Source: a virus (lineage: Duplodnaviria > Heunggongvirae > Uroviricota > Caudoviricetes). From it: a DNA stretch of 8,259 bases. The position numbers and the translations under genes were made by a program. The first letter of the stretch is position 1; every line of letters starts with the position of its first letter. Shown here in pieces: positions 1,411-8,259 of this stretch. Below the pieces are notes generated by a model. It was not told the origin of the DNA. It searched no databases and saw nothing but the letters and a program-made list of their open reading frames with translations. The DNA lies in the IMG/VR virus record IMGVR_UViG_2695420676_000017. One strand, written 5' to 3'.

Positions 1411-2012
1411 TAAGTAAAGCTGTATTAAATAATGAACTCATCGCCACAAAGGCCGGAGACATTACCGTTTATAATTATGATGGTGAAACACGGGAATATA
1501 TTTCCACATCAACTGAATATCTTGCTGTGGGTGTTGGTATCCCGGCATGTTCCTGTTTAGATGCTCCTGGCTCATATAAAGCTGGTTATGCAATTTGCCG
1601 TTCTGCAGATTTTAACTCATGGGAATATGTGCCAGACCATCGCGGTGAAATCGTCTATAGCACCGAAACAGGAGAATCAAAAGAAATCACACTTCCGGGT
1701 GATTACCCTGAAAATACAACCACTATCGCCCCGTTAACGTCATACGATAAATGGGATGGTGAGAAATGGGTGACCGATACTGAGGCACAGCATAACGCCG
1801 CAGTAGACGCGGCAGAAGTACGGCGCCAGTCACTGATTGATGCTGCTATGGCTTCCATTAGTCTGATTCAGCTGAAATTGCAGGCCGGGCGGAAGCTGAC
1901 GCAGGCAGAAACAACCCGGCTTAACGCTGTGCTGGATTACATTGACGCGGTGACTGCAACAGATACCAGCACCGCGCCGGATGTCATCTGGCCTGAACTA
2001 CCGGAGGCGTAG
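1407..2012 (+). CDS. Tail fibre assembly protein (Tfa/gpU-type chaperone) cognate to cassette C1
   Basis: Translationally coupled to the fibre gene. C-terminus [24 protein letters not shown] is the conserved Tfa tail. Its 3' end overlaps the convergent tfa gene by 29 bp, as in Mu U/U'. Confidence 0.85.
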
Positions 2013-2427
2013 GCCATTCAATATCTGGAGCACTGGAGGTATCAACCAGTTCCAGTGCGTCCAGATAATCCAGCCATAAATTATATTGTTCCAGCTCGTA
2101 ACCTTTCAGACGACCAATAGCAGCTTTGCCAGGCCACTGATGGGTATTGATGTAGGTATTGACTTCTGAAACCAAAGATATCTTTTTCATTTCAGCCGCC
2201 AGCATCTCATCCTCTTTTGAAGGCGGCGGGGAATTAATCCATATTGGCCGTCCTGAACTGTCAGCGCCAATTTCTTTCCCTTCTGGATGCAGCCCAAGAA
2301 ATTGCTCATATGTTTCTCTGGTAATTTCAATAACATCATCAGGAAGCGTTCCCGCATCCTCATATTCTGGAAACAATTCTTGCAGATAAAAACTTTTACT
2401 TGCGGGTGAAAAGAATACTGAGTTCAT
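1984..2427 (-). CDS. Tail fibre assembly protein (Tfa) cognate to cassette C2
   Basis: Convergent with Tfa1. Conserved C-terminal block [46 protein letters not shown] 2 nt after the stop of the upstream fibre ORF on the minus strand. Confidence 0.85.
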   Translation of the reverse strand: MNSVFFSPASKSFYLQELFPEYEDAGTLPDDVIEITRETYEQFLGLHPEGKEIGADSSGRPIWINSPPPSKEDEMLAAEMKKISLVSEVNTYINTHQWPGKAAIGRLKGYELEQYNLWLDYLDALELVDTSSAPDIEWPTPPVVQAR

Positions 2428-2879
2428 TCTTACCGTCCAATGATTAACGCTGAGACGCTGGTATCTGAAGGAAAGGCTGCATTCAGTGGTTTGTCGACTT
2501 TGAACACAATCGTATTATTCCCCCTGACAGCGGCAAAAGAACAAACCGCCGTCGCGTATGAACCTGTAATATTACTGGATACACCACCATAAGCTGTTGT
2601 TGATACCAGAGGGATAACGCCCAGCACCTTATTAGGAAATACAAAGGGCAATGTGGCTGTGGCAATATAAGACTTATTAGAACCTGTAATGGCATAAGCA
2701 TTATCAGTCATTCCATTCATCGCCACTGGACCGCTTATACTTACAGTAACCATCTGAATGATTAGCCCGTCAGGTTGACGAATCACAAAATTTCCATTGC
2801 CACCAGTAACCGTCCAGAAAGACATATCAGGGATTTGGTTTTCCCCGTTGCCCACATTTCGTTTTGCCGCTTCTCCCAA

Positions 2880-4052
<1,173 letters not shown>

Positions 4053-4072
4053 ATAAATCACCCTGAATAAAA

Positions 4073-4486
4073 TTACTCACCAACAGCCCACCAACTGTAA
4101 TGCATAGATACCGTGTCACTGGTTGATGACGTTCTGTAAGCAGAATTAAAGCCGGTTAACGTAGGGCCTTCTGGAGTCATCACGAACCCTCGCCCAGCGC
4201 CTAAAGGCGCACCGCCATCACCAGAATGGGTAAGAATGGCGCAGTCCGCTTTTTTAGGGAAAGGGATAGGAAATGTAATCCTCATTGTTTGCGTCGATAA
4301 TTTCGGCATAGCCTCGCCTCGACCATATTGCAGAATTTTACCGTTGGGTAATTTCATCCATCCATCACCACTGGCAAAAGAGGCCATGTCCGGTATCTGA
4401 TTTTCCCCTGTCCCTACATCCCGTTTTGCCGCTTCTCCCAAACCAACGTTTATGAAAATGCAGAAATAACGAGCAAATGGCATCAT
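4073..4486 (-). CDS. Tail-fibre variable C-terminal cassette C3 (silent cassette; the ORF extends through site C into the invertase-proximal flank but lacks the constant N-terminal domain)
   Basis: After the site-encoded GLGE it reads [16 protein letters not shown]..., sharing its first ~20 residues with C2 and then diverging. Stop TAA at 4073-4075. The upstream ATGs at 4481-4486 have at best AGGA with 0-3 nt spacing, so independent translation is doubtful. Confidence 0.65.
   Translation of the reverse strand: MMPFARYFCIFINVGLGEAAKRDVGTGENQIPDMASFASGDGWMKLPNGKILQYGRGEAMPKLSTQTMRITFPIPFPKKADCAILTHSGDGGAPLGAGRGFVMTPEGPTLTGFNSAYRTSSTSDTVSMHYSWWAVGE
4433..4458 (+). other. Crossover site C, 26-bp Hin/Gin/Pin-type recombination site next to the invertase gene
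   Basis: TTCTCCCAAACC-AA-CGTTTATGAAAA: variable-side half-site identical to A and B, outer half-site different. Same orientation as B, inverted relative to A. Confidence 0.75.
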
Positions 4487-4512: not shown

Positions 4513-5067
4513 ATGCTTATTGGCTATGTACGTGTGTCAACAAATGACCAGAACACAGATCTACAACGTAATGCGCTGAACTGTGCAGGATGCGAGCTGA
4601 TTTTTGAAGACAAGATAAGCGGTACAAAGTCCGAAAGGCCGGGACTGAAAAAACTGCTCAGGACATTATCGGCAGGCGATACGCTGGTGGTCTGGAAACT
4701 GGACCGACTGGGGCGCAGTATGCGGCATCTTGTCGTGCTGGTGGAGGAGTTGCGCGAACGAGGCATCAACTTTCGTAGTCTGACGGATTCAATTGATACC
4801 AGTACCCCAATGGGGCGCTTTTTCTTTCATGTGATGGGGGCCCTGGCTGAAATGGAACGAGAACTGATTGTTGAACGAACAAAAGCTGGACTGGAAGCTG
4901 CTCGCGCACAGGGACGAATTGGTGGACGTCGTCCCAAACTTACACCAGAACAATGGGCACAAGCCGGACGATTAATTGCATCAGGAGTTCCGCGCCAGAA
5001 AGTTGCGATTATCTATGATGTTGGCGTATCGACTTTGTATCAGAGGTTTCCGGCAGGAGATAAATAA
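4513..5067 (+). CDS. pin: Serine-recombinase DNA invertase of the Hin/Gin/Pin/Cin family
   Basis: 184 aa, MLIGYVRVSTNDQNTDLQRNAL... with the catalytic-serine motif (VRVSTNDQ), the WKLDRLGRS block and a C-terminal HTH, classic for this family. GGGAGA SD 6 nt upstream of ATG. Immediately flanked by crossover site C, as gin/cin/pin are in Mu/P1/e14. Confidence 0.92.
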   Translation: MLIGYVRVSTNDQNTDLQRNALNCAGCELIFEDKISGTKSERPGLKKLLRTLSAGDTLVVWKLDRLGRSMRHLVVLVEELRERGINFRSLTDSIDTSTPMGRFFFHVMGALAEMERELIVERTKAGLEAARAQGRIGGRRPKLTPEQWAQAGRLIASGVPRQKVAIIYDVGVSTLYQRFPAGDK

Positions 5068-5265
5068 AGACACAGCTCGTCGAATTCAAGAACGTGTGAG
5101 CCAATCTCATGATGATTCATTATTTTCACATAGAGTCAATGACAAAAAACGGCTGCAAGGTAAACCACAACGATGGCTTTGTTAATTGATAGCGGTTTTG
5201 GTACTAAATGATACAAATTAAAATGAATATCCTAGTGAATTACAACAATTTCAGGAGGAAATAGT

Positions 5266-5478
5266 ATGCCAAGAAAAACGCTAGAAAATTTGGTAAATGT
5301 TGCACGTCAGACTCAGGAAATAGCGGATAAGAGAAGCCGTTTTTTCGGGTATCTTGAACAGCATGGCTTGAAGAGGAATGAGGATAGTGCTCACCTTTTT
5401 GCTATGCATTTACGGTTGCAACACAATGAAAGAGATAATCTTGTCCATGAACTGATGTCCGGATTACATCATAAATAG
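5266..5478 (+). CDS. Hypothetical small protein (70 aa), AT-rich cargo gene
   Basis: Strong SD AGGAGG 7 nt upstream of ATG. No family recognised. Lies in the low-GC block. Confidence 0.45.
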   Translation: MPRKTLENLVNVARQTQEIADKRSRFFGYLEQHGLKRNEDSAHLFAMHLRLQHNERDNLVHELMSGLHHK

Positions 5479-5512
5479 TGCATCATTCGAGCAAGAATAT
5501 TATAAGACAATA

Positions 5513-5535
5513 AACCAGCCAAAAACTGGCTGGTT
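5513..5535. terminator. Putative hairpin between convergent genes (possible terminator for the minus-strand operon and/or the small plus-strand ORF)
   Basis: AACCAGCC-aaaaact-GGCTGGTT, 8-bp stem; on the minus strand it is followed by a U-rich tract (UAUUGUCUUAUAAUA). Confidence 0.4.
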
Positions 5536-5562
5536 GAACGTTAACTTTTTGAATTTAATCAA

Positions 5563-5907
5563 TTAACTTTGGTGTATGTCTTGGTAAGTCTCATCCGTCA
5601 GAGCCAATTTCATGCAAATATCATCGTTAAGACTGACAATATCTTCGATCAGTTTATTGATCTCGAAATCGTTAAGTTTTGATACTGTTGCTTGAACTCG
5701 CCCCTCATCGCCAGTGGCATCAAACTTAGTCAGTTCCTTACATAATTCATCGAACCTGCTTTGTAAGGCATTTGGAATATCATCGGCTGTTTTAAGATGC
5801 CCAAGGCTAAAAACATACGAATTAATCAAGCGTTCTTGAATACTTCCATGGCCCGCAAGAGTAAGTACTGCAGTATGAAATTTTTCATGTGCATACTTTA
5901 AGGACAT
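5563..5907 (-). CDS. Hypothetical protein (114 aa), second gene of a two-gene AT-rich operon
   Basis: ATG with GGAG 7 nt upstream, 51 nt after the stop of the upstream gene. No transmembrane segment and no motif I recognise. Confidence 0.6.
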   Translation of the reverse strand: MSLKYAHEKFHTAVLTLAGHGSIQERLINSYVFSLGHLKTADDIPNALQSRFDELCKELTKFDATGDEGRVQATVSKLNDFEINKLIEDIVSLNDDICMKLALTDETYQDIHQS

Positions 5908-5958
5908 ATCTGGTCTCCGTGACTTATAACCTCAACCGACATAAATGGGGTTAAGTGA

Positions 5959-6990
5959 TTATTCTGAAACAATAGTGTTGAACTGACCTATAGAAACAGC
6001 ACCCTTTTCAATTACCTCTAAGTAACTGATTTTAATATGAGAGTTGTTTGACAAAGCGTCAACAATAGCTGTCAACTCATCTTGGGTGATAACATCAGCT
6101 GAAGCTTTGATTGTGAAGCATTCGTCATTAGAGACCCTAACAACGTTAATATTAATATCCTGATTTGTTGGCCCTGTTCTGGTTACACCTTTGATGGAAA
6201 ATATATCAGTTCGTTCTTTACGTTCTCTATCTACAGATTGTCGGCTGTTGTAGGTATTTAGGTCTTGTCGTGTTAGTTTCTCATTTCCTAAAGTCACGGT
6301 TTCGACAGTAGGATCAGCAGCTAATTGCTTCACTAAAGCACTTTTACCTGCTTGTCCGTGACTAGTAACTTTATCGCTAATCGCTGATTTCCCATAGATT
6401 TTATAATCTAATGTTGCTTCTATGGCTTTGTTTATGCCATCGGATGTGGTTTTTGCAATTTCAACCTGCCGATCAGTTGCATGTCTTTCTGTTACGGCAT
6501 TTTCTGAAATGTAGTGATAACCACATGTGCTGGCCGCGCCAACCATTGTGATTATAACAAGCATTTTCTGCCAGCCGTTCAGTCCAGACATAGTATCTCG
6601 CAAAAAATCAGTTACTGCGTTGATGATCTTGTCAGTGGTGCCTTCCGCATCACTAGAACCTTCGCTAATTTTAAAATTTATATCAAGTCGTTGCTTGTCT
6701 TCATTAGTCAAGCGTTGAAGATTCTGCGATCCGTATCGTATGGTTGCAAACGCCCGCTGTATCTCCTCGTTGAGCATTGACATACCAAACAACATTGCTG
6801 ATGTAATTGATGAATGATACCGCTCTCCTTTTACATTTATGTCTAAGGATGGCCAGCCTGCAAACTTTACGTTAGGGAAAATAAACTCTTTAGAATCAAG
6901 CCCCTCTCGGGCTTTCATTTCTTCCAGAAAGTTTAGAAAATCATCTTCACTACGGATCAGAAAATCAATCGAATCCACAGTAGCTTCCAT
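5959..6990 (-). CDS. Hypothetical single-pass membrane protein (343 aa), first gene of the operon
   Basis: ATG at 6990 with AAGGA 7 nt upstream. One hydrophobic stretch (about residues 141-158, MLVIITMVGAASTC...) between a ~140-aa N-terminal domain and a ~180-aa C-terminal domain. No recognisable catalytic motif. Confidence 0.7.
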   Translation of the reverse strand: MEATVDSIDFLIRSEDDFLNFLEEMKAREGLDSKEFIFPNVKFAGWPSLDINVKGERYHSSITSAMLFGMSMLNEEIQRAFATIRYGSQNLQRLTNEDKQRLDINFKISEGSSDAEGTTDKIINAVTDFLRDTMSGLNGWQKMLVIITMVGAASTCGYHYISENAVTERHATDRQVEIAKTTSDGINKAIEATLDYKIYGKSAISDKVTSHGQAGKSALVKQLAADPTVETVTLGNEKLTRQDLNTYNSRQSVDRERKERTDIFSIKGVTRTGPTNQDININVVRVSNDECFTIKASADVITQDELTAIVDALSNNSHIKISYLEVIEKGAVSIGQFNTIVSE

Positions 6991-7044
6991 ATGAATATCC
7001 TTATTAAATTCTCATTCGGTTACTGTTTATTGTTGACTGATCAA

Positions 7045-7075
7045 TAAAAAAGCCCGCAATTTGCGGGCTTCTTTC
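7045..7075. terminator. Bidirectional rho-independent terminator (downstream of ssrA on the minus strand)
   Basis: AAAAAA-GCCCGC-aattt-GCGGGC-TTCTTTC: GC-rich stem flanked by an A-run on one side and a T-run on the other, so it reads as a terminator on both strands. Confidence 0.6.
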
Positions 7076-7199
7076 ACACTTGAGAGCCGCGGCTCCTTTG
7101 CGTATCCTTTTTTGTCTCCTCACCGTCTGGTCGGTGTCCTGCTGAGACTGCTAACTTCCTGTTTTTGTTGGTGTTGTCCTTACACCGTCCAATCATGAT

Positions 7200-7562
7200 T
7201 GGTGGAGCTGGCGGGAGTTGAACCCGCGTCCGAAATTCCTACATCCTCGGTACTACATGCTTAGTCAGTCTTTACATTCGCTTGCCAGCTGCGGACGGAC
7301 ACGCCACTAACAAACTAGCCTGATTAAGTTTTAACGCTTCAACCCCAGGCAGGGCTTCCACGCGATCTCTTTTGGGTTTGACCTCTCTTGATCCCCGTCC
7401 TAAGAGCGGAGGCTAGGGAGAGAGGGCTCTAAGCAGGTTATTAAGCTGCTAAAGCGTAGTTTTCGTCGTTTGCGACTATTTTTTGCGGCTTTTTACGAGG
7501 CCAACCGCCCCTCGGCATGCACCTTGGGTTTCGCAAATCCCGTCGAATCCAGAATCAGCCCC
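7200..7562 (-). ncRNA. ssrA: tmRNA (SsrA, 10Sa RNA), complete 363-nt mature sequence
   Basis: Minus strand reads GGGGCUGAUUCUGGAUUCGACGGG ... GGUUCAACUCCCGCCAGCUCCACCA, which matches the enterobacterial tmRNA as I recall it, including the 3' CCA end, and lies downstream of smpB as expected. Confidence 0.95.
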
Positions 7563-7776: not shown

Positions 7777-8259
7777 TTAACGGTGGGCGTTTTTCATGAT
7801 ACGTGCTTTATCCACCTGCCATTCGCGTTCTTTGATATCTGAACGTTTATCGTGCTGTTTTTTACCTTTGGCGACGCCGATTTTCACTTTGCACCAGGCA
7901 TTTTTCCAGTACAGGGAGAGCGCCACTACGGTATAGCCTTCTCGATTGACGCGACCGTACAATGAGTCCAGTTCGCGCTGGTTGAGAAGTAACTTGCGGG
8001 TACGGGTAGGATCGCACACCACATGCGTGGAGGCCACGGCCATTGGCGTGATGTTAGCGCCAAACAGAAATGCCTCTCCGTCACGCAGAAGGACGTAGCT
8101 GTCGCTGATATTGGCTTTTCCTGCGCGCAGGGATTTAACCTCCCAGCCTTGCAGGGCAAGTCCCGCTTCGAACTCTTCTTCGATAAAGTATTCGTGACGG
8201 GCGCGCTTGTTAAGCGCGATGGTCGCTGAACCAGGTTTATGTGCTTTTTTCTTCGTCAT
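7777..8259 (-). CDS. smpB: SsrA-binding protein SmpB (complete, 160 aa; start codon at the last bases of the window)
   Basis: Translation [47 protein letters not shown]... is recognisable as SmpB; conserved smpB-ssrA synteny. Confidence 0.95.

Follow-up and report, generated by a model that had tools for sequence, protein, structure and literature searches.

The question raised by this locus is whether a 70-codon open reading frame (ORF) at the edge of an Escherichia coli prophage is a gene and, if so, whether its product serves the two genes that face it or acts independently of them. The original prediction had described it as an AT-rich orphan ORF with a strong ribosome-binding site, and had proposed that it might be functionally linked to the neighbouring operon as a regulator, an antitoxin or an anti-defence factor. 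The stretch of DNA analysed here, referred to below as the window, is 8259 nt long and corresponds to the right end of a temperate E. coli prophage together with the host genes to its right. To the left of these host genes lies a Mu-type baseplate/tail-fibre module with a Pin invertase, followed by the 70-aa ORF and then by two convergent genes. The features concerned are the following.

4477/4513-5067, plus strand: gene of a Pin-type serine invertase (Resolvase and HTH_7 domains), upstream of the 70-aa ORF
About 5097-7038: strain-variable cargo block (70-aa ORF, 114-aa and 343-aa genes) at the att-proximal end of the prophage
5228-5233, plus strand: -10-like hexamer TATCCT, 32 nt upstream of the ATG, putative promoter of the 70-aa ORF
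5253-5258, plus strand: Shine-Dalgarno sequence AGGAGG, followed by 7 nt and then by the ATG at 5266
5266-5478, plus strand: 70-aa ORF, from the ATG at 5266 to the TAG at 5476-5478, encoding 70 aa
5513-5535: 9-bp GC-rich hairpin AACCAGCCA/TGGCTGGTT, a perfect inverted repeat between the convergent genes
5563-5907, minus strand: 114-aa gene, convergent with the 70-aa ORF
5959-6990, minus strand: 343-aa gene, convergent with the 70-aa ORF
7200-7562, minus strand: ssrA, the tmRNA gene of the host
7777-8259, minus strand: smpB, a host gene

These coordinates agree with the placement of the ORF between the invertase and a convergent two-gene operon, as originally described. In strain EC1515, which carries the full prophage, regulation is lambda-like, the terminase is of the P27 type and the tail is contractile; the integrase gene occupies the opposite end and, as is the case in lambda, is directed outwards. 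Positions 7039-7199 match more than 4200 E. coli genomes with 88-94% identity, and their K-12 counterpart lies beyond the far end of CP4-57, adjoining ypjA. This segment is therefore native DNA downstream of ssrA and not phage DNA, and its location between ssrA and the prophage places the junction approximately 160 nt beyond the end of ssrA and not within this gene. The separating segment includes the terminator hairpin of ssrA (about 7046-7070). At the left, the likeness to other pin-carrying E. coli prophages ends at about position 5096: the adjacent pin gene is matched in 4721 of 5426 E. coli genomes, whereas only about 45 match beyond that point. As similarity ends there and native ssrA-downstream DNA restarts at about 7039, the cargo block was delimited to approximately 5097-7038. 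Only about 50 nt of prophage DNA precede the start of the 343-aa gene, so that its promoter is expected at the junction itself, unless the gene depends on read-through from ssrA.

The part of the window upstream of the invertase contains a perfect 672-nt inverted repeat (281-952 versus 2870-3541), which comprises the 3' part of a gp48/YmfQ-like gene and the constant N-terminal part of the tail fibre, as well as a perfect 85-nt direct repeat (1-85 versus 3569-3653). These repeats indicate a large duplication within the invertible tail-fibre region, where three alternative fibre-tip/assembly cassettes (1407-2012, 1984-3173 and 3624-4486) precede the invertase gene. The end of pin and the next 90 nt (5046-5155) show about 80% identity to the region of the yedL (GNAT acetyltransferase) locus in many E. 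coli genomes.

The AGGAGG motif is present twice in the window when both strands are considered. The other copy, at position 3955 on the minus strand, has no usably spaced start codon, and the motif of the 70-aa ORF is thus the only correctly spaced one, in keeping with the strength originally ascribed to this ribosome-binding site. The low GC content was likewise confirmed, with 39.9% for the ORF and 36.8% for the 495-nt spacer, against 46.8% for the window. No consensus -35 element was found near the -10-like hexamer at 5228-5233, and the promoter scan called no plus-strand promoter there. The length of the ORF alone is no evidence for a gene, as dinucleotide-shuffled versions of the 495-nt spacer have ORFs of 70 codons or more in 25% of cases; its significance lies in the ribosome-binding site and in its homologues. 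RefSeq/PGAP annotates the product as a hypothetical protein (WP_001137529.1), and the exact sequence is present on more than 1000 contigs, mostly from E. coli and one from Salmonella Derby, always under the name hypothetical protein. A literature search with the RefSeq accession found no paper on it. In one IMG/VR contig of 6377 nt (L039), the ORF occurs twice in opposite orientations (2785-2994 on the minus strand and 6165-6377 on the plus strand), which may reflect an inversion or an assembly artefact.

Homologues of the 70-aa protein are few. An exhaustive phmmer search of 1.84 billion representative proteins retrieved five small relatives with 40-58% identity, and two profile searches of 5.8 billion proteins enlarged the family to about 16 clusters, after which it did not grow further. 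Most members are 67-84 aa long, and longer calls (e.g. 96 or 90 aa) are artefacts of upstream start codons. All named sources belong to the Enterobacterales (Escherichia, Citrobacter, Scandinavium and Pantoea). A degenerate-pattern search detected only two true loci and one chance match in 185,579 species genomes, and ten loci in IMG/VR. With tblastn, the protein had no match in phages, and in plasmids only a 2.6-kb E. coli record with the same block, plus a chance match. The designation as an orphan is thus correct in that no curated family matches, but it has to be amended, as the protein is listed by PGAP and belongs to a small family.

Nine residues are invariant among 15 family members, and the motifs ARQTQ, NExSAHxFA and RxNLVxxLMSG recur. 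Among eight coding sequences, pN (0.15-0.46) was lower than pS (0.30 to >0.75) in all 28 pairs, synonymous sites were saturated, and dN/dS ranged from 0.09 to 0.44 where it could be computed. Third-codon positions diverge far more than first and second positions, e.g. 0.46-0.77 versus 0.18-0.49. The closest pair, from loci L020 and L027, shows relaxed constraint (dN/dS of 0.44) and an altered C-terminus. An ATG with a purine-rich Shine-Dalgarno sequence is kept at every homologue locus, and a TATAAT, TATACT or TAAAAT hexamer lies 24-32 nt upstream of the ATG in nine of nine distinct loci.

A chance reading frame, in which the conserved element would be DNA or RNA (a promoter, an att-arm sequence or an RNA antisense to int read-through), could be argued from the frequency of ORFs of this length in the shuffled AT-rich spacer and from the fact that the locus abuts att arms; moreover, in the excised phage, an int transcript crossing attP would run antisense to the ORF. 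Against it stand the excess of third-position changes and the uniformly lower pN, together with the preservation of frame, start codon and Shine-Dalgarno sequence at 40-58% amino acid identity. Furthermore, Rfam gave no match in positions 4900-7250 apart from the edge of the tmRNA, and the RNA structure around the start of the ORF is not unusual (z = -1.3). This alternative was therefore considered highly improbable. Purifying selection and the kept frame, start and Shine-Dalgarno sequence imply that the ORF itself, at a similar length, and not merely the nucleotide sequence is conserved. Conservation of the nucleotide sequence alone, which would have spoken against the original prediction, was thus not what was observed, and on comparative grounds the 70-aa ORF is almost certainly a real protein-coding gene. 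To this extent the original prediction was supported: the ORF is a genuine small gene, and it occupies a cargo slot at the end of the prophage. Selection for an important function is nevertheless not obvious, because the family is so small, with about 16 clusters among 5.8 billion proteins.

Structure prediction, which had been proposed as a check, yielded a three-helix model with a pLDDT of about 81 and no significant structural match. AF2 gave the same three-helix bundle (helices 4/6-33, 39-48 and 53-65) with alignments of 6 and 15 sequences (pLDDT of 80.7 and 80.6, respectively). The protein of the window is basic (pI of 9.4), as are most family members (pI of 8.1-10.1 in 12 of 15). The 70-aa protein is predicted to be soluble, and no transmembrane segment, signal peptide or catalytic motif was detected in it. 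Searches of Pfam, PHROGs, PADLOC and NCBIfam with this single protein gave no match at E < 0.05, and searches of Pfam and PHROGs with all 15 members gave chance-level matches only, Pfam having none at E <= 10. Among PDB sequences, a cytochrome P450 (E = 0.06) was all that a profile search detected.

Several candidate identities were examined and rejected. The similarity to an AsiA-type anti-sigma factor (phrog_1166) was limited to the window protein, one of 15 members, with E = 0.11. An origin from a truncated integrase was discarded, as hhalign gave probabilities below 2% against five recombinases (locus integrases and XerD). An excisionase of the Xis/AlpA/TorI type does not fit the model, which is all-alpha and not a winged helix with beta strands. 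Nor does the context suit such a role, since the gene lies across attP from int and locus L026 has its own Exc gene. The integrase types also differ between homologue loci, so that no co-variation with the integrase was seen, and an excisionase PHROG was matched by only one of 15 members (E = 0.15).

The possibility that the 70-aa protein is a dedicated partner of the 343-aa and 114-aa proteins, i.e. an antitoxin or immunity protein, a regulator or a self anti-defence factor, was evaluated from the distribution of the three genes. In E. coli the ORF has not been observed without the pair: all 46 complete genomes with the spacer carry the whole 2.1-kb query, the three genes are intact together in each of them, and the spacing is fixed in all ten contexts shown. 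The block has also been transferred as a unit to another phage backbone with a lambda-like tail (L005). However, co-occurrence is confined to one 1.9-kb block carried by 46 of 5426 E. coli genomes, and with an identity of at least 99% among all copies, it amounts to one inherited block and does not provide independent evidence. In L010 (E. coli CP123010.1, 1438-5802), genes for glycolysis (Gp_dh, PGK and F_bP_aldolase products) directly precede pin, the ORF and the 114-aa and 343-aa genes and replace the tail genes, which points to a rearrangement of the chromosome that had one of its breakpoints at pin or close to it.

Outside this block the association disappears. No 343 or 114 homologue was found within about 6 kb of any divergent homologue of the ORF; a 114-aa gene in L023 and Orf10 of phi458 were considered as 114 homologues and rejected for lack of similarity. 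The 343-aa protein is a member of phrog_6191 (E = 7e-38). A hydrophobic stretch (WQKMLVIITMVGAAS) lies in its central part, and PADLOC gave no match for it. Its homologues in phages phi458 (46% identity) and PhiR12 (26% identity) are encoded directly downstream of cI, at the following coordinates.

L002, 4001-5047: 343-aa phage-homologue locus, directly downstream of cI
L003, 3899-4924: 343-aa phage-homologue locus, directly downstream of cI

The position directly downstream of cI is that of rexAB in lambda. The 343-aa gene is thus a candidate exclusion or defence gene, and an exclusion system of this kind might need control, which would favour a partner. Yet neither an ORF70 nor a 114 homologue was found near the 343 homologues of phi458 and PhiR12, and the 70-aa ORF is intact in two loci in which the 343 gene is disrupted (L006 and L038).

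The transcriptional arrangement also bears on this point. The hairpin at 5513-5535, 35 nt past the stop codon of the 70-aa ORF, is common to the ORF and the pair and to that extent joins them. It has folding energies of -18.6 and -18.5 kcal/mol (z-scores of -3.0 and -2.3), and the terminator scan found a good T-tract on the minus strand only. It is clearly an intrinsic terminator of the 114/343 transcript on the minus strand and possibly a weaker stop for the transcript of the 70-aa ORF. The ORF is convergent with the 114/343 pair, with a terminator hairpin between them, and is not co-transcribed with it. A repeat search revealed no operator-like repeats around the ORF beyond this terminator. 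With respect to antitoxin or defence functions, the 70-aa protein had no match in PADLOC, Pfam or NCBIfam. Thus, the synteny check proposed with the original prediction showed that the ORF travels with the 343/114 pair only within one nearly invariant block, and the suggested functional link, including a role as regulator, antitoxin or anti-defence partner, was not supported. Such a partnership is unlikely, and the comparison of loci argues that the 70-aa gene is very probably autonomous, although a functional link limited to the E. coli lineage is conceivable, since there the pair has accompanied the ORF in 46 of 46 genomes.

The one constant feature of the family is its position. Wherever the homologue loci include flanking sequence, the gene closes a series of tail-fibre, tailspike or cargo genes and is oriented towards the attachment site, and in every divergent context with sequence on both sides it is separated by 150-350 nt from the att core or the host junction. 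The window prophage is integrated beside ssrA, and its 114-aa and 343-aa genes separate the 70-aa ORF from the junction, whereas in the relatives only the att arm intervenes. The attachment sites of these relatives differ, and several of the loci share a tRNA fragment upstream of the gene.

L014, L017-19 and L024-26: icd 3' fragment (e14-type att)
L016 and L023: tRNA-Leu 3' fragment att
L020-22 and L027: frmR-adjacent junction
L016, 5871-5902, minus strand: tRNA-Pro 3' half
L017-19, 5876-5907, minus strand: tRNA-Pro 3' half
L024-26, 5958-5989, minus strand: tRNA-Pro 3' half
L035, L036 and L040: tRNA-Pro 3' half also present

In K-12 e14, the slot between pinE and the att arm is occupied by the restriction gene mcrA, and no homologue or remnant of the 70-aa ORF was found there. 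The att arm of e14 is nevertheless 81% identical to DNA that starts 53 nt past the stop codon of the Citrobacter homologue. The other occupants of this slot among the relatives are Abi_alpha, AbiC, DinI, SRAP and UmuDC.

The shared fragment is a 32-nt, proL-like tRNA-Pro 3' half (GGTCGGAGGTTCAAATCCTCTCGTGCCGACCA). Together with an intrinsic terminator, it lies 60-90 nt before the ATG of the homologues and on the other strand. Its conservation is 100%, against an identity of 40-58% for the ORF, and it is absent from the window. ARAGORN called no tRNA at this fragment, which looks like a fossil or secondary att site inside these phages. The upstream terminator and the tRNA-Pro fragment are expected to block read-through from the left in the relatives and suggest a promoter of its own for the gene. 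The stem AACCAGCCA/TGGCTGGTT at 5513-5535 of the window, preceded by AATAAA, is near-identical to the stem of this tRNA-Pro-side terminator (about 5922-5943 in L024 and 5838-5859 in L016), a likeness that may be a coincidence or a relic of a rearrangement. In L024 and L026, positions 6292-6830 contain serial att-like remnants, namely a tRNA-Leu-type arm with a partial core (ataacacgcgtgatttaaaa), shared with L016 and L023, followed by the icd 3' fragment that is used. These remnants suggest stepwise accretion or swapping of att modules at this end of the phage.

The constant vicinity of the attachment site raises the question of whether the 70-aa protein might be an att-site accessory. It would then consist of a single DNA-binding domain similar to the core-binding (SAM-like) N-domain found in tyrosine recombinases, and would bind the adjoining att arm and modulate integration or excision. 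In the phage form of L026, the order of genes is ORF, icd', int, xis, and the gene faces int across attP. The core-binding domain of tyrosine recombinases (Cre, XerC/D, IntI4) has four or five helices and differs in this from the three-helix model of the 70-aa protein. Moreover, the protein has no profile similarity to this domain and no catalytic domain, and its gene is not tied to a particular type of integrase. Membership of the domain at the sequence level was rejected, since hhalign gave less than 2% and Pfam no Phage_int_SAM match. We regard such an accessory as quite unlikely.

More generally, it is improbable that the position beside the att arm, facing int across attP, is itself functional, be it through the protein or through the transcript. 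If through the protein, a stand-alone core-binding-like DNA binder would tune site-specific recombination whatever the type of integrase. If through the transcript, the convergent RNA would pair with int read-through RNA, and would do so only when the phage is excised and circular, as a trans-acting analogue of lambda sib retro-regulation, and in the relatives the tRNA-Pro fragment with the terminator upstream of the ORF could act as a stop for the int transcript.

The features of the gene are better accounted for by an autonomous moron in the variable att-proximal cargo slot, with a product acting by binding, a reading that we somewhat favour as a whole. Morons of lambdoid prophages are autonomous accessory transcription units, such as bor and lom of lambda. 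Like them, the 70-aa gene is small and supernumerary, has translation signals and perhaps a promoter of its own, and has a lower GC content than its surroundings (39.9% for the ORF and 36.8% for the spacer, against 46.8% for the window), i.e. a distinct base composition. It is also present in some and absent from other otherwise similar prophages, in a non-essential region between the tail genes and att; this polymorphism is reflected in the numbers of genomes matching pin (4721 of 5426) and the DNA beyond about 5096 (approximately 45), and in the presence of mcrA in the slot of e14. In contrast to characterised moron products, the 70-aa protein is related to none of them in sequence or structure.

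The gene would thus be an independently transcribed accessory gene inserted between the tail-fibre/invertase module and the attachment site. In the lysogen, it would be transcribed from its own weak sigma-70 promoter with the -10-like hexamer at 5228-5233, and efficiently translated from the consensus ribosome-binding site. Its product would act stoichiometrically by binding a partner, which may be a host or phage protein or a nucleic acid, rather than as an enzyme, and would do so independently of the 343-aa and 114-aa genes. The likeliest role would be a function of benefit to the lysogen, as is usual for this slot, that is, phage exclusion or defence-related modulation, or the modulation of host genes. 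That the 70-aa protein is such a binding-type lysogen-benefit factor can be put forward only tentatively.

Two known systems illustrate what such a gene may resemble. The slot of the 70-aa gene, with the Pin invertase immediately before it and the att arm immediately after it, is that of mcrA in e14, and homology to the att arm of e14 is seen in the DNA that follows the family member in Citrobacter. McrA differs in being a type IV restriction enzyme, with a gene of 834 bp, whereas the 70-aa product is helical and has no nuclease motif. DicB, a small protein of the cryptic prophage Qin, is reported to inhibit inner-membrane receptor proteins and in this way to block infection by phages (PMC6832061). 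The 70-aa protein is similar to DicB in that it is small, prophage-encoded, retained in degraded prophages and plausibly partner-binding. On the other hand, the 70-aa ORF has no Pfam match and is found at the att end, unlike DicB, which belongs to the immunity region, and a protective phenotype is purely hypothetical.

The conserved 70-aa gene is an ordinary prophage accessory gene from a tiny, uncharacterised family restricted to the Enterobacterales. At present the result is of little consequence, with a further small gene of prophages validated. It nevertheless indicates that the gene should be kept apart from the 343/114 module when this module is tested for phage defence. In addition, the family marks the att-proximal hotspot for cargo in e14-like prophages and their relatives, where e14 has mcrA, and can be used as an anchor for finding cargo and defence genes. 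If the position beside attP proved to be functional, the 70-aa gene would represent a new small regulator of prophage integration or excision.
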